DNA of 64,000 nt, taken from positions 163,384 to 227,383 of the IMG/VR virus record IMGVR_UViG_3300028888_000051; one strand, 5' to 3'. Positions within the stretch are counted from its first letter, which is position 1, and the number at the start of each line of letters is the position of its first letter. The notes under the pieces are model-generated. The model did not search any database and was not told where the DNA came from. It worked only from the letters and a program-made list of their open reading frames with translations. The stretch comes from a virus. Taxonomy: Duplodnaviria; Heunggongvirae; Uroviricota; Caudoviricetes. This document shows, one piece after another, positions 7,062-51,210 of the stretch. The position numbers and the translations under genes were made by a program.

Positions 7062-7064
7062 TTA

Positions 7065-19472: not shown

Positions 19473-20246
19473 ATGTTTATAAAAATAATTAAATTCATGT
19501 TTAGTTGGTTTAATAAAAAAGAAAAGATCGAAGAATCAAAACCTGTTGAAGTACAAGAAAAACAGGAATCAAAACCAATTACAGTATCAATTGAAAAAGA
19601 AAATGAAAAAATTAAATTAACATGGTTATTTTTACGTGAAACATTATATAAAGTTAATAATAATCTTAATAAGAATGATTGTGATTATTATTATGAAGCT
19701 TTAAATAAAATACTTCCTCAATATGAAATTAATACTAAACTCAGAGTTTGTCATTTTTTGGCACAAATTTTACATGAAAGTGGGCATTTAAAATATAAAT
19801 CTGAAAATTTAAATTATTCTGCGAAAGCTTTACGTTCTGTTTTTGGCAAATATTTTAAAACAGATGAAATCGCAAAAGCATATGAAAGAAAGCCAGAAAA
19901 AATTGCTAATAGAGTATATGCTAATCGCATGGGTAATCGTAATGAAGCGAGTGGTGATGGGTATAAATTTCGTGGGCGTGGACTTATTCAACTCACTGGA
20001 GCTAACAATTATAAGATTTGTGGACAAGATTTAGGTTTAGACTTAGTAAAAAATCCAGATTTAATTATATCTGATCCAGAAATTTGTGTAAAAACAGCTT
20101 GTTGGTTCTGGAATAAGAACAAATTAAATGAATTAGCAGATAAAGATGATATAAATGCTATAACAAAATGTATTAATGGTGGCTTAAATGGAATCGATGA
20201 TCGCCGTAAAATATTAAATTTAGCTAAAGATAAAATAAATATATAA
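19473..20246 (+). CDS. endolysin, glycoside hydrolase family 19 (chitinase-like lysozyme)
   Basis: FLAQILHESGHLKYKSENLNYS and YKFRGRGLIQLTGANNY are GH19/COG3179-type signatures. About 60-aa Lys/Glu-rich N-terminal extension. Confidence 0.8.
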   Translation: MFIKIIKFMFSWFNKKEKIEESKPVEVQEKQESKPITVSIEKENEKIKLTWLFLRETLYKVNNNLNKNDCDYYYEALNKILPQYEINTKLRVCHFLAQILHESGHLKYKSENLNYSAKALRSVFGKYFKTDEIAKAYERKPEKIANRVYANRMGNRNEASGDGYKFRGRGLIQLTGANNYKICGQDLGLDLVKNPDLIISDPEICVKTACWFWNKNKLNELADKDDINAITKCINGGLNGIDDRRKILNLAKDKINI

Positions 20247-20336: not shown

Positions 20337-20813
20337 ATGGCGAATAGATTTATACCAGATGATTATGATCATAATTTAGAAAACGAACTATTTGATGAAG
20401 AATGGTACACTAAAGTTTCTAATGCTATAAATTATACTTTTGACATATTAGAAAATAATAATAAAAGAATTGTTATCAATAAAGAAACTATTGCAAAAGC
20501 TATTATTGATTATAATATAGAAAAAAAACTCAGTGAAAATATTGATAATTTACCAATTCCTACTTTATTAGATTGGTCTAAAGCAAATAGTGTACAAATA
20601 TTTGATGAATTTGCTTCTATAGTATGTCTTTGTAATAAAAATGATAAATTTAAAAGACATGTTGTTAAAATAATATGTAATAATAATAAATCAGCTATCG
20701 AACAATTTAAATTTTGGGAAAAAGTTAATAATGAAGAAAAAAATAATACAATAATTTTAGATAAAATTCAAAAAAATAATACAATAATTTGTATTATCAA
20801 AAGAAGGACTTAA
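20337..20813 (+). CDS. hypothetical protein (158 aa)
   Basis: ORF downstream of the bipartite element. Confidence 0.5.
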   Translation: MANRFIPDDYDHNLENELFDEEWYTKVSNAINYTFDILENNNKRIVINKETIAKAIIDYNIEKKLSENIDNLPIPTLLDWSKANSVQIFDEFASIVCLCNKNDKFKRHVVKIICNNNKSAIEQFKFWEKVNNEEKNNTIILDKIQKNNTIICIIKRRT

Positions 20814-20818
20814 ATTTT

Positions 20819-21715
20819 ATGTCAAATGAATTAGTATTAAATTCAGAATGGACGCCTTTTTTAATAGAAAACAGAGCTTCTATTACATTTGATAAATTTT
20901 TAGATTTAATTAAACAATTAGATAACAATAGTTCACCAAATTTATGGACAAAATGGAAAAATTATGCTAATCAAGTAGTTATAGAAACACCAAATTACTA
21001 TTTTAAGTTATATGAAGATGATTATTTATGTGGTTCATTTTGGTCATTAATTCGCTCTACTTTAGGAGAGATATATACAAAATATTTTAATATTTTGTGG
21101 GATGTTAATATTATAAAGCAAAATAGTAAAATATATACACTCGAAAGACGTCAAAAATTAAATGTATGTATACCGAATTCAATTTTATATACTGATTTAC
21201 TTCTTAATTGGTCAAATACACTTAAAAAACTAGAAAATGAACTTTTATTATCAGAAATATGTCAACAACTTAAACCATATATTCCAGAATTAGCAGAACT
21301 TAAGTTGATACGTAATTGTATAAATAAATATGCAGATTATGCTATTACTGAAGATAATAATATTGTACTTTTAGATGATTCCGATTGGTTTATAGCTATG
21401 GTTGATAAAAACGGTAAATGGTTAAATTCAAAATTTAAAGGTTATAATATAATTTCTAGTTTAGGAGAAACAATTTTTGCTCCAGAGGGTTATTTTGATA
21501 AAGGAAATATAACTAAACATGAAGAATTTACAAATAAATGGCAAATTTATATGGAAAATATTAAAACTACAGAAATAGAAGGAATTTTATTTGATCAACG
21601 TGAACAAATGCTCAAAGATAATATATCTTTGATATTTAATCAAAAACTTTTGCCTAATCAAAATATAAAATCTTTTGATTCAGTAGGTGATTTACTTAAA
21701 ATTGGTTTTGAATAA
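20819..21715 (+). CDS. hypothetical protein (298 aa from the internal ATG)
   Basis: Track ORF starts at 20789 inside the upstream gene. ATG at 20819 (MSNELVL) follows the upstream stop and is the more likely start. The 3' end overlaps the convergent rSAM gene by 20 nt. Confidence 0.5.
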   Translation: MSNELVLNSEWTPFLIENRASITFDKFLDLIKQLDNNSSPNLWTKWKNYANQVVIETPNYYFKLYEDDYLCGSFWSLIRSTLGEIYTKYFNILWDVNIIKQNSKIYTLERRQKLNVCIPNSILYTDLLLNWSNTLKKLENELLLSEICQQLKPYIPELAELKLIRNCINKYADYAITEDNNIVLLDDSDWFIAMVDKNGKWLNSKFKGYNIISSLGETIFAPEGYFDKGNITKHEEFTNKWQIYMENIKTTEIEGILFDQREQMLKDNISLIFNQKLLPNQNIKSFDSVGDLLKIGFE

Positions 21716-22742
21716 ATTCTCTATCACAGATAACACATTCATCAGAATCTATATAGGCGCAATAATTTAGTTGATGTCCACATTTAGCTGTAAGAAATTC
21801 TAAGCAATTACCTTCTTTTTCATTTAATTCATTTCGTGTATGTTTATTTCTATGATTTAATTGCATACGATGATTATCATCTGATTCATTGAAATTTCTA
21901 TACAAATCATCTGCACGATAAATTATATTAAAAAGTTTATCATATAAACCTGGGCAATCTTCTTTAAATTTAATTAAAAATTTTAAAAAATCTTCTCTTT
22001 TTGGAAAAAAACCCGGTAATCTTTTTTCCATTAATTGTTTAGCTTCCATGTATTGTTCAATTTTTGATAAGTTTTCATGAATAGGTTTAATTCCACCTGG
22101 AGAAGGTTGTTTAAAAAACATAGAAGTATGATATTTATTCATAAAATCATTAAAAGAAAATTCACCATTCAGATATTTGGTAATTATATCTTGAGTTAAA
22201 ATGGTACAAGTGTTAAAATTTAATGTTGGATATTTTTCATGTAAATTTAACATGTTATTTGACCAATTTTCTTGCATTTTTGGTAAATGAAAACGACCGA
22301 TCGTATCATAAGATGTAACAAGCCATACTTGATTTATTAATTCTGGTTTTCCGGCTTGAATATACATTTTTTTCATAATATCCAAAGAAGTATATAAATC
22401 TTTTTGTGAACCTATTGTAAGGGTACACATAATCCATACTTCACGTATTTTACCTGAAATTTGTAATTCTGCAGTTTTTTGCATAAGATTAAAAAATTTA
22501 TTTTTGACTTCATCTACATCAAGTTGACCTTGAAAAAATTCTCCACCTATATAAGATACTGTGTTATATGGAATCATTTTTTTGTTATCAGATAAAAAAT
22601 TATAAGCATCATCAAGTGCCTTAATTTTTAATTCTGTTGGTGTAAAGCTATTACTGTTTGCATTATAACAAAATACACATTTTTGATTACATTGATGCCA
22701 TAATTCAAACTGTAAACTCTTTTTTTCATTTATATCCATCAT
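21696..22742 (-). CDS. radical SAM enzyme, paralogue D (348 aa)
   Basis: CNQKCVFC (CxxxCxxC) at residues 18-25; YIGGEFF; C-terminal CGHQLNYCAYIDSDECVICD. Confidence 0.8.
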   Translation of the reverse strand: MMDINEKKSLQFELWHQCNQKCVFCYNANSNSFTPTELKIKALDDAYNFLSDNKKMIPYNTVSYIGGEFFQGQLDVDEVKNKFFNLMQKTAELQISGKIREVWIMCTLTIGSQKDLYTSLDIMKKMYIQAGKPELINQVWLVTSYDTIGRFHLPKMQENWSNNMLNLHEKYPTLNFNTCTILTQDIITKYLNGEFSFNDFMNKYHTSMFFKQPSPGGIKPIHENLSKIEQYMEAKQLMEKRLPGFFPKREDFLKFLIKFKEDCPGLYDKLFNIIYRADDLYRNFNESDDNHRMQLNHRNKHTRNELNEKEGNCLEFLTAKCGHQLNYCAYIDSDECVICDREFIQNQF

Positions 22743-23659
22743 TAGTCTCCTATCATTTCTAAAAAGTTTTCAACATCACTTCTTGGATGTATGTTAGAAT
22801 CAAAATATCCATAATTGTTTTCATCACAATAGGTATTCTTTTTATTTTCTGAATTATGTCTATCATTCATAATATAAAAATCTTTATCGTCAAATGAAGA
22901 ATAACATGTATCACTATGATTTACAATATTTATAAAATTTTCTAAATCATCTTTTGTAAACATTTTTGTTTCATAAGTATATTGTAAAAATTTAAGAAAG
23001 GTTTCTCTTCTCGGAAAAAAATTAGATAAAATTTTATTTTCGAAATCTTCAACATTTTTACATAGATGACCATAACCAGTCATTGGTAGCATATAATTTG
23101 TAAAGCAATTATAATTTTCATTGAATTCTTTTAAATTTAAACGATTAGACAACACTGCTTCTAACATAGCTTGAGTAACAATCATTTCAACATGAAGTTT
23201 TAAATTTGGATAATTTTTATGTAAAAATAACATATTATTTTGCCAATTTTTTAAAGTGTTATTATTAAATCTACCAATTATATCCCAAGAAGTACAAATC
23301 ATAAATTGATTCTGAAAGTTCTTTATATATTCACAAAATTCTAATAATTCAGAATTATCATCAAACATTAAAGCTGTTGTAATAAGACAGCGTTTAGCTA
23401 TTCCCATTTTAATTTTATTTATAAAACAGTCTATAATTTTATAAAAGTATTTTTTAACTTCAGCTGTATCTATTTCACCATTAAAAAATTCTCCACCGAT
23501 TATACCAAAATCAGAATATTTATCAGCTTCTTTTGTATTAAGAATATCTAAAACTTTTTTCATACATTTAACTTTATCTCTATGTCTAGGTATACCGTTA
23601 TTATAGCAAAATTTACATCCAAATGAACATTGTTTCCATAATTCAAATTGTAAAAACAT
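22742..23659 (-). CDS. radical SAM enzyme, paralogue C (305 aa), C-terminal Cys module degenerate
   Basis: CSFGCKFC; IIGGEFF; C-terminus YCDENNYGYFDSN lacks the EC..CD part. Confidence 0.8.
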   Translation of the reverse strand: MFLQFELWKQCSFGCKFCYNNGIPRHRDKVKCMKKVLDILNTKEADKYSDFGIIGGEFFNGEIDTAEVKKYFYKIIDCFINKIKMGIAKRCLITTALMFDDNSELLEFCEYIKNFQNQFMICTSWDIIGRFNNNTLKNWQNNMLFLHKNYPNLKLHVEMIVTQAMLEAVLSNRLNLKEFNENYNCFTNYMLPMTGYGHLCKNVEDFENKILSNFFPRRETFLKFLQYTYETKMFTKDDLENFINIVNHSDTCYSSFDDKDFYIMNDRHNSENKKNTYCDENNYGYFDSNIHPRSDVENFLEMIGD

Positions 23660-23660
23660 A

Positions 23661-24584
23661 TTACTCTCCTAGTATAAGTAAATCACAAAGCATACATTCA
23701 TCTGAATCTGCATAACATCTATATAATTCACTATGACCACATTCGGTAATATTTTCTTTACCATCAGATAAAATTGGTTGTTGAGTTATATCATTATTTT
23801 TATTACGTAAACCAGTATATTTATAAATCGCCGAAGCGTTAGTTGAACTATACATATTAGTATATATCTGTGGAAAGTTTTCTTTCAAATATATACAAAA
23901 ATTAAGAAAATCTTCACGTTTGAAGAAAAAGTCATTTAATTTAAAACCAGAATGTATTGGATGAGGATATAAAAAACAAAAATTACATCCTTTTAGTTCT
24001 TCTTCTAAAAAATATTTAAAATCAAATTTGTTAGACATAATATCATCAATAAGATATTGAGTTAAAATCATTTGAACTCCAACTGCATAATTATATCTAT
24101 CTCTAAATTTTTTGATATTTTCTAAAGCTAATAATCTTTTTTCTTCTGAAGGATATCTATATTTTATATCATAAGAAAAATTTACATCTATAAATCGCAT
24201 GTCTCCTGTTTTTTCTTTGATTCTGTCTATAACACGAAATAAAAATGCTGGATCATACATTCCATTAGTTACAGTTGAATAGCGACATCTATAAGAAGTA
24301 CTAACTAATAATATTTTATTTATGATGTCATCTATTAAAAGCATAAATTCATCTTGTATATCTTTATCGGTTATAAAATACAATTCACCACCTAAAAGAG
24401 ATATACCATCAGCAAATTTATCTTTCCAATCAATATAATCCAAATTTTTTCTTATTTTATGTATTTCTTCAATAAGTCTAGATTTATCCCAAACTTCACG
24501 ATTTTTTCGTAAACAGAATTTACAGTTATTGTTACAATTTGGCCAAAGTGAATATTGATTCATATAATGTTTAATTTCTAACAT
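23661..24584 (-). CDS. radical SAM enzyme, paralogue B (307 aa)
   Basis: CNNNCKFC; LLGGELY; C-terminal CGHSELYRCYADSDECMLCD. Confidence 0.8.
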   Translation of the reverse strand: MLEIKHYMNQYSLWPNCNNNCKFCLRKNREVWDKSRLIEEIHKIRKNLDYIDWKDKFADGISLLGGELYFITDKDIQDEFMLLIDDIINKILLVSTSYRCRYSTVTNGMYDPAFLFRVIDRIKEKTGDMRFIDVNFSYDIKYRYPSEEKRLLALENIKKFRDRYNYAVGVQMILTQYLIDDIMSNKFDFKYFLEEELKGCNFCFLYPHPIHSGFKLNDFFFKREDFLNFCIYLKENFPQIYTNMYSSTNASAIYKYTGLRNKNNDITQQPILSDGKENITECGHSELYRCYADSDECMLCDLLILGE

Positions 24585-25451
24585 TTACATTTTCTCCATT
24601 ATTTCTTTTAGCACTTTACAATCACAAACAAAACATTCATTTGAATCAGAATAACATTTTTTAAAATTTTCTGAATGACCACATTTACTTTTATTTGATG
24701 AGATATCAACTAGTTTTCCATTTTCAGATTTTTGTAAAATAATATTTTGATTTAAAAGAAAATTATTACAATATTCTGTACCATAACCTGGAAGTTGTTC
24801 ATTAAGTTTTAGAATAGTTTTAAAAACAGTTTCTCTTGTTGGAGCTTTTATGTCTTTTCCAAATTTTATATAGGGTATTGTATTTACTTTAACGTTATAG
24901 TTATTTTCATACTCAGCTATGTTAAATTTTTCAGATAATACATCATTACAAAAACTTCTGGTTAAAATAATATTGACATATATAAGTAACTCAGGAAATA
25001 AATTTCTAATTTCAGTGAGATTAAAATAAAATTGTTTCATAGAAAAAGAATTAGAAAATCTTCCATCTCCATCACCAGAAGTAGTAAAATGTATTCTATT
25101 TTCTAATTTATAATCTTTTATCATATTTAATATTGGTAAAAGAAGTTCATGAATATCATATAAAATATTTGTATTAATATAACATAATTCAATTTCATTT
25201 TTTAACATTTTTTCACAAGTTAATTTGAATAATTTAAATAATTGTGAATTTATTATTGTATTTTTTTCTGCAAATATTTCACCACCAACGAATAGTATAT
25301 GTGTATCAGTTAAGTCTTTTACTGCATTATATATTAATTTTATCGATTCAAGTTGTTCTTCATGAGTTTGTTGTTTTTCTCTTTTTTGCCAGCAAAATTT
25401 ACAATTATTTGGACAATTATTCCAAAGAATGAATTCATGTATAGGTAACAT
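24585..25451 (-). CDS. radical SAM enzyme, paralogue A (288 aa)
   Basis: CPNNCKFC; FVGGEIF; C-terminal CGHSENFKKCYSDSNECFVCDC; first gene of the four-gene operon. Confidence 0.8.
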   Translation of the reverse strand: MLPIHEFILWNNCPNNCKFCWQKREKQQTHEEQLESIKLIYNAVKDLTDTHILFVGGEIFAEKNTIINSQLFKLFKLTCEKMLKNEIELCYINTNILYDIHELLLPILNMIKDYKLENRIHFTTSGDGDGRFSNSFSMKQFYFNLTEIRNLFPELLIYVNIILTRSFCNDVLSEKFNIAEYENNYNVKVNTIPYIKFGKDIKAPTRETVFKTILKLNEQLPGYGTEYCNNFLLNQNIILQKSENGKLVDISSNKSKCGHSENFKKCYSDSNECFVCDCKVLKEIMEKM

Positions 25452-25474: not shown

Positions 25475-25500
25475 TTTAGAACTGAAATGAGTTCTATATA
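25475..25500. promoter_or_regulatory. divergent pair of GTTCTA boxes (TTTTAGAAC ... GAGTTCTATATA)
   Basis: The minus-strand copy faces the rSAM operon (start 25451). The plus-strand copy lies about 30 nt before ATG 25526. Confidence 0.45.
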
Positions 25501-25525
25501 TCATATAAAAAATAAAGGAGAAGTT

Positions 25526-26029
25526 ATGGAAAATATTAAACAATTAACTAAAGATGAAAAAATAGAAAAATTACGTGCTTATATGAAAGGTGAAATTTTA
25601 GATAATGATTTAGCCTTTAATGTATTTTTATTATTGTGTCCACCAAAAAATTTTGGTCAAGATTTTTTTGAACATGAAAAAGTAATGTATTCATCTATTA
25701 TTGAAATATGCTCTATAACAGGTTTATTAAAACAAGATATGATTGATTTTTGTAGTCAATTATTAGGTATATATGAAGCTTGTTTTAGATATTGTGTACC
25801 AATTAAAACAGAAAAACAAGAAACTAATGTACCAGAACAATATTTAAAAATTTTTGCATTATTAGATTTTCAAAGAATAGCCAAATTGTATGAAAAATAT
25901 GAGGCAGCTAATATAAATTGTAAGTATGGAGATGCTTATAAAGTAATTTATCCGTTTATGAGACAGTTTAATTTCTATGAAGATTTAATGTGTGAAAACG
26001 GATTTGAATTTGGAGATAATTGTGACTAA
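25526..26029 (+). CDS. hypothetical protein (167 aa from the revised start)
   Basis: Track start 25487 lies inside the promoter-like box. ATG 25526 (MENIKQL) has an AAAGGAG RBS at the right distance. Confidence 0.55.
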   Translation: MENIKQLTKDEKIEKLRAYMKGEILDNDLAFNVFLLLCPPKNFGQDFFEHEKVMYSSIIEICSITGLLKQDMIDFCSQLLGIYEACFRYCVPIKTEKQETNVPEQYLKIFALLDFQRIAKLYEKYEAANINCKYGDAYKVIYPFMRQFNFYEDLMCENGFEFGDNCD

Positions 26030-26816
26030 TAGTACAACAAATATTGATTCTAATGAAAAAATAACTTATGCTGTATTAACAACAAAATTTTTAGAATGGT
26101 TAAAAGCAAGTTGTAAAAATATAGGTACAGCATATGCATCAGATGTACCAGATGCAATGAAAAGTACAACATATCATAAAGATTATACCGGTACTATATC
26201 TGTTCCAGCTGATTGTAAGCCAAAATCAGCAAGTAGAAACACAAATTATAAAATGAGTATGAATATAAATAATACTTCATTACCAAATAGTTTTCCATTA
26301 GTTACTATCTCTGATATTGAAACAGATTTCAATAATTTTATGCAAGCTAGAGGTATATATACTAAATCAGATACTCCAGTTATAGCAACTGGTTTATTGG
26401 CTTTTTGGAATAATGTTGCATCATTTTGTTCAGCACGTATATATAATGTAGCTGGATTAAATGCTACAAAGGCATTACGTATGTATAAAAAATTAGGAAA
26501 AACAGTAGCTGAAATACAAGCTGCAGATAGTGGAAATAATCCATATTATAAAAAAGTTTCTACTATGACTCAAGGGTTTGTTCCAAATTCTTCACAAGGT
26601 AATTGTTTTAATAAAAATGATGTTACAAAATTATTAGATGAATTAGAAACAATTATTGGAGAGACAAATAGATTATATACTGTCACGTATGTTTTTTCAA
26701 ATAGTTTATGGTCATCATCTTGCTGTTCAAGTTCTTGTTCTTCTAGTTCATCATCTAGCTCAAGTAGTAGTTCATCATCTAGTTCAATGTTTATAGGATA
26801 TATGAAATTATATTAA
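26022..26816 (+). CDS. hypothetical protein with Ser/Cys-rich C-terminal tail; paralogue of 27969..28670
   Basis: GTG at 26022 follows GGAGA and aligns its N-terminus with the paralogue. Shared blocks IETDFNNF and GLLAFWNNV. Tail WSSSCCSSSCS(16)MFIGYMKLY. Confidence 0.6.
   Translation: MTNSTTNIDSNEKITYAVLTTKFLEWLKASCKNIGTAYASDVPDAMKSTTYHKDYTGTISVPADCKPKSASRNTNYKMSMNINNTSLPNSFPLVTISDIETDFNNFMQARGIYTKSDTPVIATGLLAFWNNVASFCSARIYNVAGLNATKALRMYKKLGKTVAEIQAADSGNNPYYKKVSTMTQGFVPNSSQGNCFNKNDVTKLLDELETIIGETNRLYTVTYVFSNSLWSSSCCSSSCSSSSSSSSSSSSSSSSMFIGYMKLY
26744..26781 (+). repeat. two 15-nt direct repeats (TAGTTCATCATCTAG) within the poly-Ser coding tract
   Basis: Copies at about 26744-26758 and 26767-26781, read directly. 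Confidence 0.6.
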
Positions 26817-26879: not shown

Positions 26880-27920
26880 ATGAAAGACAAAAATTTAATA
26901 ATTAAAGAATGGTTTGATATAGATGGTTTTTCAGTTAATGAATTACAAATATTAAAAGCTCATCGTCCAGAAGTAATAAAAAATTATAATATCGATTTAG
27001 AAAAATCAATGATAGATAGATTTTCTAAATTATTACCTTATAGTCATATAAATTATGGCACACATGAAATTTCTTTTTTTGAACATGCTACAGATATAAT
27101 AAATTGTTTATTTTCACAAAAAGTTGATGATAATACTTTAGTTATTGTATCTAATAATGAGCATGAAAATGTAATAAAAAATTATACACAATGCAAGAAT
27201 ATTTATGTTTTAGATTTTGATACTGAAATAATACCATGTAAATTAGATAATTTATATGCAGAATGCAGTAAATATAGAAAAGTATTTGTATATATAATAG
27301 GCACACAAGTTTCAAATGGAATAATTACACCACAATTATTTTTTGAAACATTAAAAACTTGGCTAGTATCAAATCAAAAAGAGCATGTAATGATAATTGA
27401 TGATGTGCATGGCTTATTTATAGTACCTAGAGATTATACTATATTTGATTACATCATTTATACATGTCATGCTTTAATTACACAATTTGATATGGGAATT
27501 TTAATTGCAAAGAGACCTTCTGAATTAGTAGGATATCATTATTTAAATTGGGGAATGGCTTATTTAGATGCTATAGAAATAATATTTAATCATTTAATAA
27601 AATTTTATAATTTCAAAAATATAATGTGCCAATATTTTGAAGAAGAAATTGCTGAAAAAAAGTTGACATTAAATTCTAATACAGCTCCACATATTTTTGC
27701 ACCAGAAATTCATAGACTTAGATTAAATAAAAATGATTTTGATGAGATATTTTATGAATTAAAAAAGTATGATATGCGTATTGAGGGAGGATTTGATGAA
27801 AATGGTAAATGTAATTCTAGATTATATCTTCGAATAAGAGAAGGGCAATACTTTACACATCCAGAAAGATTAATTCCAGGTTTAGAAATAGCTAAGTCAA
27901 TTTTTAGTACAATAGAATAA
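26880..27920 (+). CDS. class-V aminotransferase / cysteine-desulfurase-like fold protein, canonical PLP lysine apparently absent
   Basis: Ordered by-eye matches to NifS/IscS-type blocks: HRPEV, SNNEHENV, GTQVSNGIITP, IIDDVHG, YTCHA...GILIAKR (HA where HK is expected). Confidence 0.35.
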   Translation: MKDKNLIIKEWFDIDGFSVNELQILKAHRPEVIKNYNIDLEKSMIDRFSKLLPYSHINYGTHEISFFEHATDIINCLFSQKVDDNTLVIVSNNEHENVIKNYTQCKNIYVLDFDTEIIPCKLDNLYAECSKYRKVFVYIIGTQVSNGIITPQLFFETLKTWLVSNQKEHVMIIDDVHGLFIVPRDYTIFDYIIYTCHALITQFDMGILIAKRPSELVGYHYLNWGMAYLDAIEIIFNHLIKFYNFKNIMCQYFEEEIAEKKLTLNSNTAPHIFAPEIHRLRLNKNDFDEIFYELKKYDMRIEGGFDENGKCNSRLYLRIREGQYFTHPERLIPGLEIAKSIFSTIE

Positions 27921-27968: not shown

Positions 27969-28670
27969 ATGGCAATTGATCCTACAAATACACTTACATA
28001 TAATGAATTAAAAACTGATACTTTAAATTGGATAAAAACTATTCCACAAAATGTTGGTTCATATAAAAGTACTGTACATGCATCTTTAAGAGATCCAAAT
28101 TGGAGTAAAACATTAACTCAATATAATTATAATTGGGAATATAGATATACATATAATAAACAAGGAAATCCAACAAAAGCTGATAGATATCGTACACATA
28201 TTGATTTGATTGCCAAAATAAATACAGCTACAATTATTCCAGTAGTAACAGCAACACAAATTGAAACAGATTTTAATAATTTTTTAACTACAGCTAATAT
28301 TAATTCACGTTTAAATGGAATAGTTACAACATCTGGACTTTTAAATTTTTGGGATAATGTAGTATGTTTTTTATATAAACATTTGGTTAGTGTTTCTAGT
28401 AATGATGCACCAAATGGTGTTTTAATGTATTGGTCAACTTCAACATATAATTATAAATATGTTACTAAATTATCAGATAACTATACTACAGTACCAAGTG
28501 AAACAAAAATTACAGCACAAGATATGTTAGATATGTTAACCACATTAGAAGAAACTTATAATTTTGCACATCGAACACATATTGTTACTTATTCGATAAC
28601 AAAAACGACAACTGTTACAAAATTAGCTACTGGTGTTGCACCTGGTACTTATGAATCACCTGAATCATAA
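27969..28670 (+). CDS. hypothetical protein with Thr-rich C-terminal tail; paralogue of 26022..26816
   Basis: Shares IETDFNNF, GLLNFWDNV and the ..L..LE(E)T.....H/Y.VTY.. blocks; ends TKTTTVTKLATGVAPGTYESPES. Confidence 0.6.
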   Translation: MAIDPTNTLTYNELKTDTLNWIKTIPQNVGSYKSTVHASLRDPNWSKTLTQYNYNWEYRYTYNKQGNPTKADRYRTHIDLIAKINTATIIPVVTATQIETDFNNFLTTANINSRLNGIVTTSGLLNFWDNVVCFLYKHLVSVSSNDAPNGVLMYWSTSTYNYKYVTKLSDNYTTVPSETKITAQDMLDMLTTLEETYNFAHRTHIVTYSITKTTTVTKLATGVAPGTYESPES

Positions 28671-28674
28671 AATT

Positions 28675-29259
28675 TTAAAATTCTTTTGTTTGTAACCAGT
28701 GTTTTCTACAAACAGATTTATACACTATATTATCTTTTTCGATTCCTATAACTTTATTTGAAGTATCTGGTTTTCTATTTACATAACGTAAATGATGTGT
28801 TGCTTTATTTGTACAATCTGGTTTTTCACATAACATTTCTATTTCTTGTATTTCATCTGCAAATTCAATAAAAGCTTTTGTACCTTCAAAAAGATTTCCA
28901 TTAATATCATTTTTTAGACCATATGCAATAATATTTATATTTTGTTGTTCAATTAACTTTGAAATAAAAATTACATCATCACGAGTAAAAAATTGTGCTT
29001 CATCAATAATAATTATTTTATCATAATTTATATTGTTTAATTCATTTTCAAAATTTTCAATATAATAAGCAGGTATTTTTTCTTTAATCAGTCTAGAAGT
29101 AGTATATCCCCAACCTTTTTGATTTCCATCTCGTGTATCTATAACTGGTTTTATTATAATAGGATTCATGTTTTTATATTTGTACATTTGATATGTTTTT
29201 ATTGCATTTACTGATTTACCTGCATTCATACATCCATAATAAAACTTTAATTTTGTCAT
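28675..29259 (-). CDS. tdk: thymidine kinase
   Basis: P-loop YGCMNAGKS; IIIDEAQFF; C-terminal zinc-site pattern C..C...H / C..H typical of type II TK. Confidence 0.85.
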   Translation of the reverse strand: MTKLKFYYGCMNAGKSVNAIKTYQMYKYKNMNPIIIKPVIDTRDGNQKGWGYTTSRLIKEKIPAYYIENFENELNNINYDKIIIIDEAQFFTRDDVIFISKLIEQQNINIIAYGLKNDINGNLFEGTKAFIEFADEIQEIEMLCEKPDCTNKATHHLRYVNRKPDTSNKVIGIEKDNIVYKSVCRKHWLQTKEF

Positions 29260-29362: not shown

Positions 29363-30163
29363 CTAAGAAAATAACTTTACAAGCTTTTGCCAGAATGTAT
29401 CTGGATTTTTAACTTTTGCAACTATTACCTCTTCTTTTTTATTTTTAATAATAGATTGGCCAGAGAGTAAATAGTTTTTAAGATCATCATACTCAGCATT
29501 ATACCTCGCTTTATATTCTGGATACTTGATCTTTCTATATGTATATAATTTTTCTAAAAATTTTTCTTTCGTAAGAATATTTTTATTAAAACATATACTT
29601 TGGAAGATTTTATAAGCACCACCTTGTCCATGTTGTATAATAGTAGACTTAACTGCTGCTTGAATAGCATTATCTTCAGAAGCCCAAGATGTTAATTTAT
29701 TAAAATTACTATTGCCGTTTTTATCCATACGAATATAAACAGGAATTATTTCTTTTTTTAATAAAAAATTATCATATGAATTTCTAAAAGATTTTTCAGT
29801 AGCTATTTTCTTCCATATATTTATAAAATTTTTATTACCAGCATATGCAGCTCTATAACCACCTGCTTGTATTAATATATCATAATACTTATAATTATTA
29901 TCTTTTAAATATGTTAAAAAGAAATCAAAAGTAGATGGTAAATTGTTCTTTCTCCAAGTAGATATTTGCCACTTTCCATAAGAATAACCACCATATCCAT
30001 CCTTACTTATTGCTTGATACCCTAATTTACCACATTCATATTTTGCTACAATATCATGCTTTGTATGAAGAGCATCATAATTTGTTTTGGCTTGAACTGT
30101 TACTATATTTCCAAAAATAACTAAAGTTATATAATAACTTAACCAAAAGATTTGTTTAATCAT
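29363..30163 (-). CDS. secreted protein, possibly lysozyme-like glycoside hydrolase
   Basis: N-terminal signal peptide (hydrophobic core, VQA cleavage-like site). DGYGGYSYGKWQIS resembles muramidase/VgrG3-type motifs (weak, from memory). Confidence 0.35.
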   Translation of the reverse strand: MIKQIFWLSYYITLVIFGNIVTVQAKTNYDALHTKHDIVAKYECGKLGYQAISKDGYGGYSYGKWQISTWRKNNLPSTFDFFLTYLKDNNYKYYDILIQAGGYRAAYAGNKNFINIWKKIATEKSFRNSYDNFLLKKEIIPVYIRMDKNGNSNFNKLTSWASEDNAIQAAVKSTIIQHGQGGAYKIFQSICFNKNILTKEKFLEKLYTYRKIKYPEYKARYNAEYDDLKNYLLSGQSIIKNKKEEVIVAKVKNPDTFWQKLVKLFS

Positions 30164-30453: not shown

Positions 30454-31914
30454 ATGAGTACTACTGATACAGATGTTCAAAATTTAGTTGTTAATAAACT
30501 TACTCTTTCAAAATATACAGAATTAAAAAAAGCGGGTACAGTAAGTGCAACTGAATCTTATGAAATTACAGATATTGATTCAAAGATTTTAGATTTTTAT
30601 GGTACGTGTACTACAGCCGCAGGAACACAAGCTAAGGTAGTTACTTGTCCCGGATTTATTTTACAAGAAGGTATATCAATAAGAGTTAAATTTACAAATA
30701 ATCAAGATTATAATGGTGTACCTACTTTAAACGTTAATGGAACAGGAGCAAAAAATATTGTATCAAAGTCTGGTACAAATGCATTTAGATATTGTTGGAT
30801 GGCAGGTGAAGTTGTTGCTTTTACTTATGATGGTACAAATTGGATTATGCAAGATGGTGGAATTGCAACAACTACATATTATGGTACAACAAGATTACAA
30901 ACTTCTACAACTTCTACTAGTACAAGTTTAGCAGCAACTCCAGCTTCAATAAACAATTTAGTTCAAAATATGATTGAACCATATGATATTTATTCTACTT
31001 CAAGTACTTATGCTATTGGTGATAGAGTAAGATATAATAACAATGCTTGGGAATGTAATACAGCTATTAGTACAGCAGAAGCCTGGACTCAAGCTCATTG
31101 GACAATGTTAGATCCTATCCAAATACAATTGGATGATAAACAAGAAACACTTACTTCTGGTACAAATATAAAAACAATTAATGGTAATTCAATATTAGGT
31201 TCTGGAAATTTAATTATTGAAGGAACTGGAGGTAATGCTACTTGGGGTAGTATTAATGGTACTATTTCTAATCAAACGGACTTAGTTCATTCTGTTGCTG
31301 GAGCAATAAATAGTTATTGTGCAACAAATGGATCAACAAATGATAAACCATACAAAAAAATTGCTGAATGGATATTAACTGGAACATATCAATCAGTTAT
31401 TGTACCTTTTTTATATTGTTTTACAAATGTCGATGCAGCAAGTGCTTTATATTTAGGAAAAATAAATTCAAGGGTTGATGCAACTGCTGGTACTTCAAGT
31501 CAAGCAACTTCGAATATTGTATTGGAAACTTTTCCAATTGATATTCAAAATGAAAAAATTACTTTTTATTTATTATCTAAAAATAATACACCAAGTGCAG
31601 ATAGTGTTACCTATCAATTATGGATTTACATTAATAATACATATAGAGGTGTAGCAATTTTACCATTACGACAAGGAACAGGAGGATCAGGATATAATAT
31701 TTCTAATATTACATGGGGTAATAATTTAGTAGAAGCTAGTGCTTTACCTAGTGAATATGTTGCAAAAAGTCAAACATTAGCTTCTTTACATGCTTTAACT
31801 CCTACCACCAGTGATAATTCTACTAACGTGGCAACAACAGCTTTTGTAAAAAATCAAGGGTATTTATCTACGATGACATATGATTCATCTACAGAAACTT
31901 TAGCTTGGAGTTAA
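30454..31914 (+). CDS. tail fibre protein (486 aa)
   Basis: Thr/Ser/Gly/Asn-rich; conserved TSDNSTNVATTAFV motif near the C-terminus. Confidence 0.7.
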   Translation: MSTTDTDVQNLVVNKLTLSKYTELKKAGTVSATESYEITDIDSKILDFYGTCTTAAGTQAKVVTCPGFILQEGISIRVKFTNNQDYNGVPTLNVNGTGAKNIVSKSGTNAFRYCWMAGEVVAFTYDGTNWIMQDGGIATTTYYGTTRLQTSTTSTSTSLAATPASINNLVQNMIEPYDIYSTSSTYAIGDRVRYNNNAWECNTAISTAEAWTQAHWTMLDPIQIQLDDKQETLTSGTNIKTINGNSILGSGNLIIEGTGGNATWGSINGTISNQTDLVHSVAGAINSYCATNGSTNDKPYKKIAEWILTGTYQSVIVPFLYCFTNVDAASALYLGKINSRVDATAGTSSQATSNIVLETFPIDIQNEKITFYLLSKNNTPSADSVTYQLWIYINNTYRGVAILPLRQGTGGSGYNISNITWGNNLVEASALPSEYVAKSQTLASLHALTPTTSDNSTNVATTAFVKNQGYLSTMTYDSSTETLAWS

Positions 31915-31921
31915 AATATGA

Positions 31922-33181
31922 ATGTATAAATCAAGTTTTATTGGTATTTTAAGAAATTTACCACAGAATTTTACTCCAAATATCATTTGTGAATCTGCTA
32001 GTACAGAAGTACCTTATATTTTTGATTATACTGCAAATTATACAGATAATAATTGTTGGGATATTACATTAAATGTAAGACAAGATACTACTAATGCTAT
32101 TAATACCTCAACACCAATCTGGGGGCCGTTTACATTTATTATTACTGCAACAAATTATGCTCCCGCAATTTTAACTAGTTCAACGTATGAAGGAGTTTTT
32201 GATATTAAAATGGAACAATATGTTACAAGAATTTTAAATGAAAAAACTAATACTGGATATGTAATAAAAGACACAGAAGCTAGAAATAATATTACTACAT
32301 TAGATAGTAATGCAGTACATAAAACTGGTAATGAAACCATTAGTGGGACTAAGACATTTACCGATTCTATAGCGTCCCACAGTGGAGTTGATGAAACAAG
32401 CAGTTCTGCACAAGAAAAAGACTTTATTAAATTATACGATAATCAAACCAATACCGGATTTATTAGACAATATTGGTCGACAACACAAAACCAATTAAGA
32501 ATTAGAAATTTAGCAAGACACGGTGAAGCTGCAGGGGCTTGGGGAGATATACAGCAGATAATTGATGCTAACGGGAATTATAGAGTAAATATTGATTGTG
32601 CCGGAACATTAACCAATATGGCTCTCACAAGTGCTACAGGTAGCTCAACCGCCACTGATGTACCTACAAAAGGATGGGTAAATAACCCTGCTACAAGTAC
32701 GAATGTCGTGCATAGAACTGGTAATGAAACTATTGGCGGACAAAAAACTTTTACAGCTCAAGTTACTAAAACAAATAGCTCGACTGGAGCAGATACAATT
32801 TTTGTAAATAAAAATACAGCAATAACAAAAGGAACAGCTCCTAGTACAAATGTTGAATCAAGATGGAGATTAACAGATTCTTCTTCTGGAGATAGTAATT
32901 CTGCTTTGATAGCAGGTGTAGATTTTCAATATGATACAAGTAATAGAACATCTGCTTTTTTACAAGTAGGTAAACCAGAAGCAGGTTCAACAAGTACTGC
33001 CCGTATGGGTATTTTTTATCCAGCTACAGGTAATCCATATACAGAAGCTCCAACTCCTGCAACTTCTGATAACTCAACAAAAATAGCAACAACAGCATTT
33101 GTAAATAGTCACATACAGCAAGTAAGTGCACTTCCTGCTTCTCCGCTTTCTAATGTTTTATATGTAATACCAGAGGAATAG
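31922..33181 (+). CDS. tail fibre protein (419 aa)
   Basis: Two copies of (A/V)VH(K/R)TGNETI(S/G)G.KTFT; PTPATSDNSTKIATTAFVNS near the C-terminus. Confidence 0.7.
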   Translation: MYKSSFIGILRNLPQNFTPNIICESASTEVPYIFDYTANYTDNNCWDITLNVRQDTTNAINTSTPIWGPFTFIITATNYAPAILTSSTYEGVFDIKMEQYVTRILNEKTNTGYVIKDTEARNNITTLDSNAVHKTGNETISGTKTFTDSIASHSGVDETSSSAQEKDFIKLYDNQTNTGFIRQYWSTTQNQLRIRNLARHGEAAGAWGDIQQIIDANGNYRVNIDCAGTLTNMALTSATGSSTATDVPTKGWVNNPATSTNVVHRTGNETIGGQKTFTAQVTKTNSSTGADTIFVNKNTAITKGTAPSTNVESRWRLTDSSSGDSNSALIAGVDFQYDTSNRTSAFLQVGKPEAGSTSTARMGIFYPATGNPYTEAPTPATSDNSTKIATTAFVNSHIQQVSALPASPLSNVLYVIPEE

Positions 33182-33184
33182 AAG

Positions 33185-33847
33185 ATGCCAGTATATTTCG
33201 GAAACAGTAATAAAATAAAAGAAATGTATTATGGAAGGACTAAGATAAAAGAAGCTTATTATGGTTCTACGTTAGTTTATAAGAGTACACATTATAAACC
33301 AAATGAGGTAATCTATGAATCATCAACAGCTGGAAGCACTACACTTAATTTATTAGATAATGGTAAATATGAAGTCATTTGTATTGCAGGCGGAGGTGGT
33401 GGTAAGCAATTTAAATATGGTTCTGATATTACTGATCCAATAATTAATTACGGTGGTGGTTCAGGTTCTGGATTTGATTGTATTTTACAATTAACAAGTG
33501 GAAGTTATACAGTGACTGTAGGTGCAGCAGGTGTTAGAAATACGGATCACTCAACAACTTCATCTGGTTCTGGTGGCAATTCACGATTTGGAACATCTTA
33601 TGCTTATGGTGGAGGTGGTGGTAAATATAATGCAGTTGGACCAAAAGGAGAGGCTCCAAGTATAACTTACACAATAATATCTACTACTTTTAATAAAGCC
33701 GGTAATAACGGAACTAGAGATGTTGGTTCGACTGCCGCAGGTGGTGCTTCTGTTTATGATAATACAGCAACCGGCTATGGTGCAGGTGGTAGAAGCAATC
33801 AAAATGGCCATGCAGGTTATGTAAAAGTTATTTATAAAGGAAGTTAA
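33185..33847 (+). CDS. glycine-rich fibre-associated protein (220 aa)
   Basis: GGGGGK, GGGSGSG and GGGGGK runs ending in GHAGYVKVIYKG, a pattern seen in phage glycine-rich tail proteins. Confidence 0.55.
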   Translation: MPVYFGNSNKIKEMYYGRTKIKEAYYGSTLVYKSTHYKPNEVIYESSTAGSTTLNLLDNGKYEVICIAGGGGGKQFKYGSDITDPIINYGGGSGSGFDCILQLTSGSYTVTVGAAGVRNTDHSTTSSGSGGNSRFGTSYAYGGGGGKYNAVGPKGEAPSITYTIISTTFNKAGNNGTRDVGSTAAGGASVYDNTATGYGAGGRSNQNGHAGYVKVIYKGS

Positions 33848-33936: not shown

Positions 33937-34911
33937 ATGGCCAATTATGTTAGTAAATTTTTAAATAATGATATAGAATATACATTAAAAGATTCGAACG
34001 CCGTTCATAAAACAGGTGATGAAAGTATTGCAGGTGATAAAACTTTTACTGGGTATATTAAAGGTCAAGCAGCTAATTATACAAACCATGCGATGAAACT
34101 CGGCACTAATGGTGTCGATTATATGGATTTCTATGAGTATGGCGGTTTATGGAATTTCTACAAGTCGAGAAGCGGAACTAATACCCTAGTGGCTAAGATT
34201 GCAGAATTGACAACTTCTACAAATGATGAAACGCTTGCTACCACAAATTGGGTTAATAGTAAAGGCTATGCATTAGATAGCGATGTTGTTAAAACTAGTG
34301 GTAGTCAGACCGTTGACGGGATTAAGAATTTTACAAGTGGTATTAATATAGGTGATTCAACAGAATACAGAGCACAACTTTACAAATTATCTGGAGGTTC
34401 TGGCAACCTTGCACTTGCAATTAATAAACAAGATAATTCTGGTTGGTTATCAAGCATAGTGTTGAATAAAGATGGAACAATCAATATCAATCCAAGCACT
34501 AGCGTAACCGCTCCAACACCTGCAACAAGCGACAACTCTACTAAAATTGCAACAACAGCATTTGTAAATAGTAGAGTACAAAATCTTTCTTGTGATTTTT
34601 CCTCTACTGGAAAAACGACACTATCTTTAGCTCTTAATACCCCATACGCCTTTGCTGTAAGTGGTTATCTAGTTATTACCATAAACGTAAAAGGGCAAAC
34701 AGACCCTACTGTTACTGTGTTAATGTCAAACACCAGTAATGCTTCTTCATCTTCATTTAAAGTGTGTAGTATAAGTAGTAATGGTGGAACGGCAGAACAC
34801 AATAATATACCGTTTTCAATATATGTAGAAAAAGGGCAGAGTATATATCTACATAAAACTGGTGGTGGTTCTGCTACTGTGGAAGACGCTTTTATTTTCG
34901 CAACAAGATAG
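33937..34911 (+). CDS. tail fibre protein (324 aa), G+C-richer module
   Basis: AVHKTGDESIAGDKTFTG and APTPATSDNSTKIATTAFVNS motifs followed by a distinct roughly 115-aa C-terminal domain. Confidence 0.7.
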   Translation: MANYVSKFLNNDIEYTLKDSNAVHKTGDESIAGDKTFTGYIKGQAANYTNHAMKLGTNGVDYMDFYEYGGLWNFYKSRSGTNTLVAKIAELTTSTNDETLATTNWVNSKGYALDSDVVKTSGSQTVDGIKNFTSGINIGDSTEYRAQLYKLSGGSGNLALAINKQDNSGWLSSIVLNKDGTININPSTSVTAPTPATSDNSTKIATTAFVNSRVQNLSCDFSSTGKTTLSLALNTPYAFAVSGYLVITINVKGQTDPTVTVLMSNTSNASSSSFKVCSISSNGGTAEHNNIPFSIYVEKGQSIYLHKTGGGSATVEDAFIFATR

Positions 34912-41027: not shown

Positions 41028-42377
41028 TTAAGCTATAATATTATCTGGTCCATTATTAATTGATAAATCATATTTTTGTTTATAAAAAGGACCTACTTTA
41101 TTTAGCATTTTTTTAACCGTAGAGTGAATACTTTCATTTTCTAAATCAATTATGCCTTCAGGAACCTCTTGCTTACCACGAAGTAAAATACGAGCAATAA
41201 GTTGACCTAATTCAAAGCACATAGATTCATCAAAACCCCGAGTTGTAATCGCTGGAGTACCAATTCTAATTGCAGAAGATTCAGATGGTTTAGTATCACC
41301 CGGCATCATGTTTTTATTACAAATAATATGATATGATGTTAATAAGTCTTCAGCCTGTTTACCATTTATACCAGAATTTCTAAGGTCTACTAATACCATA
41401 TGATTTTCTGAGCCATTACTAATGAATCCTATTTTATTTTCTTTATCGAAATCTCTTATACCATTGATAAGTGCTTGCATATTACAATATACTTGTTCTA
41501 TATAATCTTTAAATTCTGGTTTGAGAGCTTCAATAAAACATTGTGCTTTAGCAGCAACAAGTGCTTCATTTGGACCACCTTGAATTTTTGGAAAACACCC
41601 ACTGTTAATTTTACTACAAAGTTTTTGGTCATTCCAAAGAATTATACCACCACGAGGTCCTCTTAAAGTTTTGTGTGTTGTAGAAGTGATCACATCACAC
41701 CATTTAGTTGGATCATATTTATCTTTCCATAAATGAGCAGCAATAAATCCCATTACATGAGCTGAATCAGACATAAGATAACATTTTGTTTCTTCATCCC
41801 TACCAAGATTATATACATCTACCAATTTCCTTATATATTCATAATTAATTCGTTTAGAATAAGCTGAAGCTCCAACAACTAACATTCTTGGATGATATTG
41901 AAGTAATTTTTGTTTAATTTCTTCATAATTCAATTCACCATTTTCATCAAGACCATAATATACAGGATTATATATATGACCTGTTAATGAAGCTTTAGAG
42001 TAGTGTGTCAAATGTCCGCCATATTCTATGCCCATTCCAAGTACTGTATCACCTGGTTTTAAAAGACCTGCATATACAGCTTGATTAGCCTGAGAGCCAG
42101 AATGAGGTTGAACACAAGCAAAATTTACATTAAATAATTCTTTAGCTTTTTCTATAGCATAATTTTCTACTTCATTTATTACTTCACATCCAGCATAATG
42201 ACGTCCCTGTTTAGAAACTTCATTTGGAAATCCTTCTGCATACTTTACAGATAAATGACTTCCCAAAAGATCAAGAATATCTTGACTTGGATAGTTTTCT
42301 GAAGCTATTAATTCAATACCATCATTAAGACGATTTGTCTCTTTGCTTTCTAATTGTTGTAATTTTTGATCAATCAT
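41028..42377 (-). CDS. glyA: serine hydroxymethyltransferase
   Basis: LIASENY, YAEGFP, VQPHSGSQAN, GGHLTH and TTHKTLRGPRGG (PLP-Lys context) are all present in order. Confidence 0.95.
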   Translation of the reverse strand: MIDQKLQQLESKETNRLNDGIELIASENYPSQDILDLLGSHLSVKYAEGFPNEVSKQGRHYAGCEVINEVENYAIEKAKELFNVNFACVQPHSGSQANQAVYAGLLKPGDTVLGMGIEYGGHLTHYSKASLTGHIYNPVYYGLDENGELNYEEIKQKLLQYHPRMLVVGASAYSKRINYEYIRKLVDVYNLGRDEETKCYLMSDSAHVMGFIAAHLWKDKYDPTKWCDVITSTTHKTLRGPRGGIILWNDQKLCSKINSGCFPKIQGGPNEALVAAKAQCFIEALKPEFKDYIEQVYCNMQALINGIRDFDKENKIGFISNGSENHMVLVDLRNSGINGKQAEDLLTSYHIICNKNMMPGDTKPSESSAIRIGTPAITTRGFDESMCFELGQLIARILLRGKQEVPEGIIDLENESIHSTVKKMLNKVGPFYKQKYDLSINNGPDNIIA

Positions 42378-50991: not shown

Positions 50992-51210
50992 ATGTATGAA
51001 AAATTAATAGATCTTAAAGATAATTTTTTATTTTGTATTGCAACTACATTTGTTGGAATTTTAATTATGATAATAGCTAGTGTTATTATAATTATAACAC
51101 TTCCAATGTATTATTTATTTTGGATAAATCCAGTATTTGAAATTTATCAAAATTTAATTTGGAAAATATATGATATATTATTTCAAATTGGATCAGATGA
51201 TGAAATTTAA
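50992..51210 (+). CDS. small membrane protein (72 aa, two hydrophobic segments); holin-like topology
   Basis: FLFCIATTFVGILIMIIASVIIIITLPMYYLFWINPVF; AAAGGAAA RBS. Confidence 0.45.
   Translation: MYEKLIDLKDNFLFCIATTFVGILIMIIASVIIIITLPMYYLFWINPVFEIYQNLIWKIYDILFQIGSDDEI

Follow-up and report, generated by a model that had tools for sequence, protein, structure and literature searches.

The window analysed here is a 64,000-nucleotide stretch of DNA from a Caudoviricetes virus (positions 163,384 to 227,383 of the IMG/VR record IMGVR_UViG_3300028888_000051). It carries an open reading frame (ORF), 26022..26816, whose product, here called T, joins an N-terminal domain to a C-terminal tail made almost entirely of serine and cysteine. 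The gene sits in a cassette with four ORFs resembling radical S-adenosylmethionine (SAM) enzymes, rSAM A to D, and with the product of the adjoining upstream gene (p180), a paralogue of T and an aminotransferase-like protein (p346). The tail as a candidate substrate of these enzymes is the subject of this report.

The serine/cysteine tail of protein T

T starts at a GTG codon at 26022, which agrees with the N-termini of its homologues and gives an 8-nt overlap with the stop of the upstream ORF. A Trp codon at 26709 immediately precedes the pure Ser/Cys tract, which is followed by the C-terminal MFIGYMKLY and a TAA stop (26814..26816); the sequence and the ORF list agree on this layout, as a sequence-only reading of the same DNA had described it. 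Elsewhere in the window, the longest Ser/Cys-only run in any ORF is six residues. Ser and Cys together make up 8.1% of residues, and a 25-residue run at a given site has P ~5e-28. T belongs to no family in Pfam, PHROGs, NCBIfam or PADLOC. Its N-terminal domain has no detectable fold relative, and the AlphaFold2 model is only moderate in quality; the tail is predicted to be disordered, with a predicted local distance difference test score (pLDDT) < 40.

The tail recurs across the protein family. A search profile built from the N-terminal domain of T without its tail retrieved 273 protein clusters at E <= 1e-3 and 122 at E <= 1e-10 from 1.84 billion cluster representatives. Most full-length members carry 10–36 Ser/Cys residues and a C-terminal octapeptide, while in the remainder the protein ends right after the domain, continues into a Thr-rich tail or a variable one, or is a fusion with a Gly_rich_2 domain (PF21722). 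A Ser/Cys tract lies within the last 60 residues in 81 of 154 family sequences, and a C-terminal end of 5–12 residues follows it in 78 of those 81. Six close homologues of T from pig-gut and other metagenomes (39–61% identical) all have the tail, with a tract of 23–25 residues and the end [MIA]FI[GV]YMKL. The N-terminal domain, in turn, is present in all 75 distinct tailed ORFs of the cassette loci described below.

The end of the tail follows the family consensus x-F-I-[AG]-Y-M-[KNDRE]-[LI], located at the extreme C-terminus, with Phe in 65/79, Ile in 63/79, Tyr in 61/79 and Met in 57/78 tails. This octapeptide is the most conserved part of the tail, even where the N-terminal domains are only 25–35% identical to that of T, and its conservation across such divergent domains backs, at the level of sequence, the earlier suggestion that the hydrophobic end resembles a recognition tag. 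Pooling the tails of proteins and loci gave 137 distinct examples, in which the C-terminal segment measures exactly eight residues in 82 and the tract ranges from 10 to 36 residues (median 23, interquartile range 19–24).

Residues other than Ser and Cys are rare inside the tract, with ten in the whole 81-protein survey (seven Thr, two Asn and one Pro). Cys is present in 135 of the 137 tails and is unevenly placed. The first Cys falls at tract position 0 or 1 in 88 tails, against ~35 expected by random placement, and the three tract positions beside the hydrophobic end hold 17 Cys where ~50 are expected. The same architecture retrieved by a tail-free profile, the few residues other than Ser and Cys, and the scrambling of both Ser codon families together indicate that the tail is a family hallmark under amino-acid-level selection. 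Its near-universal presence, its early first position and its depletion near the end show that Cys is no neutral replacement for Ser. The two residues are isosteric, and with Thr, Gly and Ala almost entirely excluded, this suggests a chemistry that needs a heteroatom on a primary beta-carbon, rather than a simple need for flexibility.

The sequence-only reading had raised another option, a tract whose length varies by slippage or recombination, on the strength of two 15-nt direct repeats. The repeats are present, one at 26744 as reported and the other at 26768 rather than 26767, and extend to a 20-nt imperfect repeat at 95% identity. Together with weak 12- and 15-nt periodicities and the spread of 10–36 residues among distant homologues, they speak for a contingency locus that switches tail length or reading frame. 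The 15-nt exact core, however, is not significantly longer than the repeats in codon shuffles of the T tract (mean 11.4 nt, P = 0.089); the direct repeat is a by-product of low-complexity coding. The codons are indeed mixed, with TCA, TCT, AGT, AGC, TGT and TGC in scrambled order in T, and with 317 TCN and 193 AGY codons for Ser across 27 distinct tracts, in which the longest single-codon run is four. Comparing tract length among relatives, the check that the reading had proposed, shows it to be essentially fixed. All 12 distinct full-length sequences of one 90%-identity cluster, from different samples, have an identical 23-residue tract, and in a second such cluster the tract is identical in five of six sequences and shorter by a single residue in the remaining one, so that 17 of 18 close relatives agree. 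The C-terminal motif is in frame in all 137 distinct tails, and T tracts have neither the homogeneous DNA repeat nor the length polymorphism that mark contingency loci. The length differences among distant homologues reflect slow evolutionary drift and not contingency switching; slippage is largely refuted, and we regard such a switch as scarcely credible.

A phage cassette around the tailed gene

Two further observations of the sequence-only reading hold for the surroundings of T, namely the neighbouring radical-SAM enzymes (four ORFs with CX3CX2C, 21696..25451 on the minus strand) and a paralogue with a Thr-rich tail at the equivalent position (Table 1). A scan of IMG/VR for the tail pattern returned 18 loci on 17 contigs of 38–314 kb, all arranged as p180-T-(paralogue)-A-C-B-D, with p346 present or not; a second family member, tailless or tailed, is usual, and extra radical-SAM copies occur sometimes. 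Rumen and human-gut assemblies among the JGI metagenomes yielded 38 further loci. The genes usually follow the order p180, T, paralogue, A, C, p346, B, D and are separated by < 150 nt.

The tailed gene and the enzymes are coupled in both search directions. Among the non-redundant loci with at least 6 kb on each side of T (well-flanked loci, n = 27; partners counted within 10 kb), four radical-SAM orthogroups occur in 22 and three in 5, p180 in every one, and p346 in 18; the loci with fewer radical-SAM orthogroups lie on contigs that are short or truncated. In the reverse direction, a search with rSAM B found 28 IMG/VR loci, 27 of which have a tailed ORF no more than 10 kb away, and the sole locus without one ends at a contig boundary. 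Tailed and tailless paralogues are usually paired within the cassette, and a scan for tailless family members returned only partners of already known cassettes. In one phage the unit of tailed protein, tailless paralogue, p180 and radical-SAM genes occurs twice in tandem (loci L044 and L082, the latter on IMGVR_UViG_3300045988_157480, 170 kb). Comparative genomics thereby lends support to the earlier proposal that the tail is a substrate region for the neighbouring enzymes.

The system is essentially confined to uncultivated phages. Neither T nor rSAM B has a nucleotide or protein match in 50,697 INPHARED phage records, and 185,579 species genomes yielded a single locus (L027), which has two tailed genes and a full cassette on a 249-kb contig labelled 'MAG: Bacilli bacterium' (JAZNQD010000009.1). 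A jumbo phage may have been binned together with its host in this case, which would be a hint of a host among the Bacilli. Full-text literature searches found no description of this cassette or tail, and no database has a name for any of its proteins. A paper on Fusobacterium phage FNU1 (PMC6591296) mentions radical SAM; this prompted the INPHARED search with rSAM B, which gave no match.

The remaining cassette proteins offer few matches. p180 has no family in Pfam, PHROGs, NCBIfam or PADLOC and no catalytic motif in its alignment, and the same four libraries hold no family for p308 or p158. We found no glycosyltransferase among the proteins scanned (p180, T, the paralogue, the four radical-SAM enzymes, p346, p308 and p158) and no sulfatase among the neighbouring proteins scanned. 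Within the cassette there is no conserved protease or exporter, and there are no conserved nucleotide-modification genes.

Table 1. Cassette features in the window and their coordinates
Feature	Position	Strand	Description
T	26022..26816	+	264 aa; ~225-aa N-terminal domain without recognised fold, plus Ser/Cys tail
Ser/Cys tract of T	26712..26786	+	25 residues (SSSCCSSSC followed by 16 Ser); proposed modified core
MFIGYMKLY of T	26787..26813	+	C-terminal; proposed docking/recognition element
p180	25487..26029	+	Stop overlaps T start; proposed chaperone/adaptor; in 27/27 well-flanked loci
Paralogue of T	27969..28670	+	27% identity to T, E = 6e-18; Thr-rich tail TKTTTVTKLATGVAPGTYESPES, no Ser/Cys tail
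p346	26880..27920	+	Class-V-aminotransferase-like, no conserved lysine
rSAM A	24585..25451	-	288 aa; C13/C17/C20; C257-x-H259...C273-x2-C276-D; PF04055 E = 2.5e-6
rSAM B	23661..24584	-	307 aa; most conserved of the four
rSAM C	22742..23659	-	305 aa; without C-terminal Cys/His motif
rSAM D	21696..22742	-	348 aa; C18/C22/C25; C321, H323, C336, C339
p158 and p308	20337..21715	+	Accessory genes beside the cassette in only some phages

Radical-SAM enzymes and p346

All four enzyme ORFs of the window have a CX3CX2C motif near the start of a partial TIM barrel, as is characteristic of the radical SAM superfamily, and weak matches to PF04055 and PF13353. Across loci, A to D form distinct orthogroups that share CX3CX2C at residues 11–25, a GGE-type motif and a (T/S)-S-x-D-x3-R motif. 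A C-terminal C-G-H...C-x2-C-D is kept in A, B and D, with one more Cys in B, and is missing from C; judged from its residues, this Cys3-His(+Cys) set is compatible with an auxiliary cluster or metal site. The 7-Cys motif of SPASM domains is absent, with three or four Cys and one His in the C-terminal part of A, B and D and none in C, and the NCBIfam and Pfam models of SPASM families align to the first ~60–170 residues or give no match. The same limit of ~60–170 residues applies to the other library models, all far under family thresholds and including weak matches to NrdG-type activases. No full-length match to viperin (pVip) was found, the alignment covering residues ~4–70 with 17–25 bits against a cut-off of 180. 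Nor do the enzymes have the N-terminal recognition element (RRE, PqqD-like) of maturases for RiPPs (peptides made by the ribosome and then modified post-translationally), for which there is no room because CX3CX2C begins at residue 11–18.

rSAM B has 774 homologue clusters, of which three are listed as 'hypothetical protein' and the others are nameless. Its AlphaFold2 model, computed from a 38-sequence alignment, reaches a pLDDT of 94.3 and a predicted template modelling score (pTM) of 0.91. The closest structure to the model is anSMEcpe, an anaerobic sulfatase-maturating enzyme (anSME), followed by ChlB (Z = 14.0), viperin (13.7), SkfB (13.5), GDGT-MAS (13.4), HemN (13.2), SuiB (13.0), CteB (12.9), MoaA, BlsE and EpeE/YydG. 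These matches mix peptide maturases (ChlB, SkfB, SuiB, CteB, EpeE) with the non-peptide enzymes viperin, GDGT-MAS and HemN. The model thus lies in a neighbourhood of SPASM-/twitch-type, mostly peptide-modifying enzymes, within which the differences in Z are too small to pick one chemistry. anSMEs abstract a beta-hydrogen from a peptidyl Ser or Cys to yield formylglycine.

The class-V-aminotransferase assignment of p346 is tentative. Its motif spacing is that of fold-type-I pyridoxal phosphate (PLP) enzymes. Of 13 members compared with PF00266, two reach E < 1 and one passes the gathering score (24.9 versus 21.5 bits, profile positions 71–192). The Schiff-base lysine of the S-x-H-K motif is absent, with no Lys conserved at >= 85% and a conserved T-x-H-A in the expected place; in a non-significant hhalign comparison with the serine hydroxymethyltransferase of the window, that Ala stands opposite the PLP lysine. 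Neither a profile nor a single-sequence search gave a PDB match, and the p346 profile run against 5.8 billion proteins returned only in-family proteins without a Pfam label and no bridge to canonical aminotransferases.

The enzymes bear on two other fates of the tail. The NrdG-type matches, together with the F-I-G-Y of the window tail, would suit an [AG]-Y site of glycyl-radical type, activated by NrdG- or PflA-like enzymes. Of 79 tails, however, only 19 have Gly at the position in question, which is Ala in 42 and Val in 9; this excludes an obligatory glycyl radical site, and neither an RVxG[FWY] context nor a glycyl-radical-enzyme fold is found; F-I-G-Y as an RVxGY-like site was accordingly rejected. 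Ser-rich tracts are common glycosylation sites, and this general property is what recommends an O-glycosylated or otherwise host-modified linker, an option that the sequence-only reading had also listed. It gains no support here, with no glycosyltransferase match among the scanned cassette proteins, and the notion of a linker fits poorly in any case, as an eight-residue C-terminus is no domain to link. We hold both fates to be very improbable.

The tail as a candidate maturation substrate

The hypothesis that best accounts for Ser/Cys purity, the positioning of Cys, the octapeptide and the two-way coupling with four radical-SAM orthogroups is that these enzymes act on the tail as the 'core' of a phage-encoded, RiPP-like protein-maturation cassette. 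We give this explanation somewhat better than an even chance, and hold any particular product of the modification with considerably less confidence. RiPP precursors are encoded beside their tailoring enzymes and have a recognition region apart from the modified core; here the putative precursor and the enzymes co-localise in both directions and a candidate recognition motif is conserved, which makes the cassette a possible RiPP system. We infer a pathway in which T would be made together with p180 from their overlapping genes, and the octapeptide, possibly held by p180, would dock the tail onto rSAMs A, B, C and D, whose radical chemistry would target the CH2-OH and CH2-SH groups of the tract, most likely by an anSME-type oxidation of the beta-carbon. 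That oxidation could be replaced or accompanied by thioether bonds linking Cys near the N-terminal end of the tract to the Ser run, and Cys at the N-terminal edge next to a Cys-free Ser run would fit sactipeptide-like bridging by analogy; alternatively, the tract Cys could serve to tether the substrate to an auxiliary cluster. The modified tail may be acted on by p346 and would probably remain on a virion- or tail-fibre-associated domain.

Several points weigh against this explanation. The case is built on gene neighbourhood and fold similarity, and the enzymes have neither the full SPASM 7-Cys motif nor an N-terminal RRE domain. Four conserved radical-SAM orthogroups exceed the needs of a single homopolymer modification. 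Tailless paralogues occur inside the same cassette, and the link between protein and enzymes could depend on the N-terminal domain and not on the tail. Some bacterial carbohydrate-active enzymes also have almost pure polyserine linkers, which, like the tracts here, are long Ser runs with mixed codons. Those linkers, however, join two folded domains and have no patterned Cys and no link to radical-SAM enzymes, whereas here an eight-residue C-terminal end follows the tract.

The T family appears to be virion-associated, and probably fibre-associated, given its Gly-rich fibre-type fusions and the position of the cassette between head and baseplate genes. Three members are fusions of the T family domain to Gly_rich_2, one of them in the paralogue slot of the L100 cassette. 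In locus L099, the orthologue of the window paralogue (P0007) has a glycine-rich end like that of the window's Gly_rich_2 protein, with no Pfam match. Gly-rich ends of the form G-x-G-Y-(V/I)-K-(I/V) are seen in window ORF 33185..33847 and in P0007, P0013 and P0152, and resemble the tail end [AG]-Y-M-K-[IL]. The tail could be a derived remnant of a Gly-rich domain, since GGY codons are one base from AGY (Ser) and TGY (Cys).

Head-morphogenesis genes, among them a fused prohead protease (15627..18611), lie on one side of the cassette in the window, and BppL_N baseplate/fibre genes on the other. The protease ORF has 994 aa, of which the first ~250 residues match a head maturation protease (phrog_207) and the rest form a long unassigned C-terminal extension; its homologue in locus L001 has 1330 aa. 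Neither PHROGs nor Pfam identified a major capsid protein in the window. Three consecutive fibre-like ORFs (30454..31914, 31922..33181 and 33937..34911) share the motif P-(T)-P-A-T-S-D-N-S-T-(K/N)-(I/V)-A-T-T-A-F-V, with BppL_N (PF18338) in two and a CBM_5_12 module in one, which suggests modular receptor-binding proteins of Gram-positive type. Together with the Bacilli contig, the BppL-type baseplate proteins point to a Gram-positive host. Candidate cell-wall hydrolases are encoded on either side of the cassette (19473..20246 and 29363..30163, the latter on the minus strand), one GH19-like, with homologues annotated PF00182, and the other of the VgrG3-like_C lysozyme type (PF21277).

This structural context bears on two rival explanations. 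T could be a true RiPP precursor, its 225-residue N-terminal domain an oversized leader and its ~33-residue modified tail cleaved and released as a bioactive peptide, be it a bacteriocin-like molecule, a signal or a cofactor precursor. Paralogues with a conserved N-terminus and differing C-termini, as in proteusin/NHLP precursors, and the RiPP maturases among the fold neighbours agree with such a scheme. A released peptide is nonetheless hard to reconcile with a cassette that has no conserved protease or exporter, with the lack of a conserved cleavage motif before the tract (position -1 is T, N, F, A, Y or V), and with the fibre-type fusions and head–baseplate gene position, which favour a structural protein; we consider release quite improbable.

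The second rival leaves the tail unmodified, as a flexible polyserine tether whose end forms a short beta-strand and docks by strand complementation onto a partner, of which the tailless paralogue and a Gly-rich fibre protein are examples. In that case the radical-SAM enzymes would act elsewhere, on DNA, a nucleotide or a cofactor, and be merely co-transcribed. Such a tether agrees with the predicted disorder of the tail, the usual pairing of tailed and tailless paralogues, the Gly_rich_2 fusions, the similarity of the Gly-rich end G-Y-V-K-I to the tail end, and the presence of viperin among the top fold matches of rSAM B. A plain linker, however, would tolerate Gly, Thr, Ala, Pro and Asn, which are almost absent from the tracts, and would leave the near-universal, position-biased Cys unexplained. 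It would also turn the operon-tight, two-way coupling to four orthogroups, and the duplication of the whole block, into coincidence, and the cassette has no conserved genes for nucleotide modification. An unmodified tether is in our view unlikely, while still deserving to be taken seriously.

Compared with known systems, the cassette would work most like radical-SAM maturation of RiPPs and proteins, as by anSMEs, sactipeptide/ranthipeptide synthases and proteusin enzymes, yet it is a member of none of these families; their SPASM motif, RRE domain, sulfatase motif and short leader-core precursor were each looked for and found absent. anSMEs (anSMEcpe, AtsB) are single enzymes with a full SPASM domain and two auxiliary clusters, and they modify one residue in the (C/S)-x-(P/A)-x-R motif of a folded enzyme. 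Here there are four paralogous enzymes with a short C-terminal Cys3-His(+Cys) and a homopolymer-like tract, and the tails have no Pro/Ala-x-Arg context.

Sactipeptide and ranthipeptide systems (SCIFF; AlbA, SkfB, CteB, PapB) likewise have Cys-bearing ribosomal peptides cross-linked by an adjacent radical-SAM enzyme, with the donor Cys on the N-terminal and the acceptors on the C-terminal side, as in the distribution of Cys in the tract, and SkfB and CteB are among the top fold matches of rSAM B. Their precursors, however, are short, with an N-terminal leader recognised by an RRE, which the cassette enzymes lack. Their acceptors and spacers are diverse, whereas the tract here offers only Ser, and their rings need fixed spacing, whereas tract length here runs from 10 to 36. 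Proteusins such as polytheonamide (PoyA, with an NHLP leader and the iterative epimerase PoyD) resemble T in a large conserved N-terminal region with a C-terminal core, in the many iterative modifications that would occur along one stretch and in having paralogues whose cores differ. By contrast, T has an N-terminal domain unrelated to NHLP or Nif11 (no Pfam match), the cassette is phage-encoded, and T appears from its fibre-domain fusions to be structural.

The pyrroloquinoline quinone (PQQ) and mycofactocin pathways (PqqA/PqqD/PqqE; MftA/MftB/MftC) also combine a peptide, an adjacent small chaperone and a radical-SAM enzyme, and have a conserved Tyr near the substrate C-terminus. p180, though, has no detectable similarity to PqqD or MftB, the substrate here would be a 264-residue protein, and no downstream cofactor-processing enzymes are present. 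In the 2-deoxystreptamine pathway, a BtrN-type radical-SAM dehydrogenase and a fold-type-I aminotransferase convert an alcohol to a carbonyl and then to an amine under anaerobic conditions. By analogy only, this pair offers a possible logic for the radical-SAM enzymes and p346, with the differences that its substrate is a small sugar rather than a protein, that p346 has no conserved lysine, and that p346 is absent within 10 kb from about a third of the cassettes.

Other genes of the window and of related phages can be noted briefly. A 1045-aa ORF (51207..54344, minus strand) has an intein splicing domain (PF14890, E = 1.7e-22) enclosing an HNH_3 endonuclease. Serine hydroxymethyltransferase is encoded at 41028..42377 (minus strand; PF00464, E = 2e-111), and another copy lies in the related phage at L099 2276..3652. 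Replication and recombination functions are represented by ORFs 5196..8099, 59232..60326 and 28675..29259 (the last on the minus strand); SbcC/SbcD-like nuclease subunits and RecA are encoded, and 28675..29259 is thymidine kinase-like, judged by eye from its P-loop and Cys motifs. Such genes are typical of large lytic phages. The phage that encodes the tailed protein P0003 has a 375-aa reverse transcriptase (RVT_1; L002 11455..12582 and L003 11418..12545, both on the minus strand), encoded close to a Gp53-like_C protein and ~2 kb downstream from the gene of the tailed protein; it may represent a diversity-generating retroelement.

The cassette takes up 5–8 kb of phage genomes of 38–314 kb, many of them those of large gut and rumen phages. 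It stays together even in phages whose T shares only ~25–35% identity with the window protein in the N-terminal domain, so it must be of consequence for infection in anaerobic habitats. In bacteria, ribosomal peptides are well known to be matured by radical-SAM enzymes; we found no paper on a dedicated set of four such enzymes that is carried by phages and coupled to a Ser/Cys homopolymer-like candidate substrate tail on a probable structural protein. The proposal is directly testable, since everything that it requires, from the candidate substrate and its putative recognition motif to the candidate enzymes, lies within ~8 kb. If the tail is modified, it would represent a new class of radical-SAM substrate, acted on iteratively along a homopolymer-like tract with a C-terminal recognition motif, and a new viral route to virion chemistry beyond the genetic code. 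In a more specific scheme, which we consider unlikely, large gut and rumen phages would decorate a tail-fibre-associated virion protein by oxidising nearly all Ser and Cys residues of the tract at the beta-carbon to formylglycine, which would then be cross-linked or, with the lysine-less, aminotransferase-like p346, aminated to 2,3-diaminopropionate. If true, the neutral polyserine would become either a polyaldehyde with reactive groups or a polycation, for use in adsorption or envelope penetration. To our knowledge, no phage structural protein modified post-translationally by radical-SAM enzymes has been described, so this would be the first, and its iterative chemistry on Ser/Cys would be new as well.

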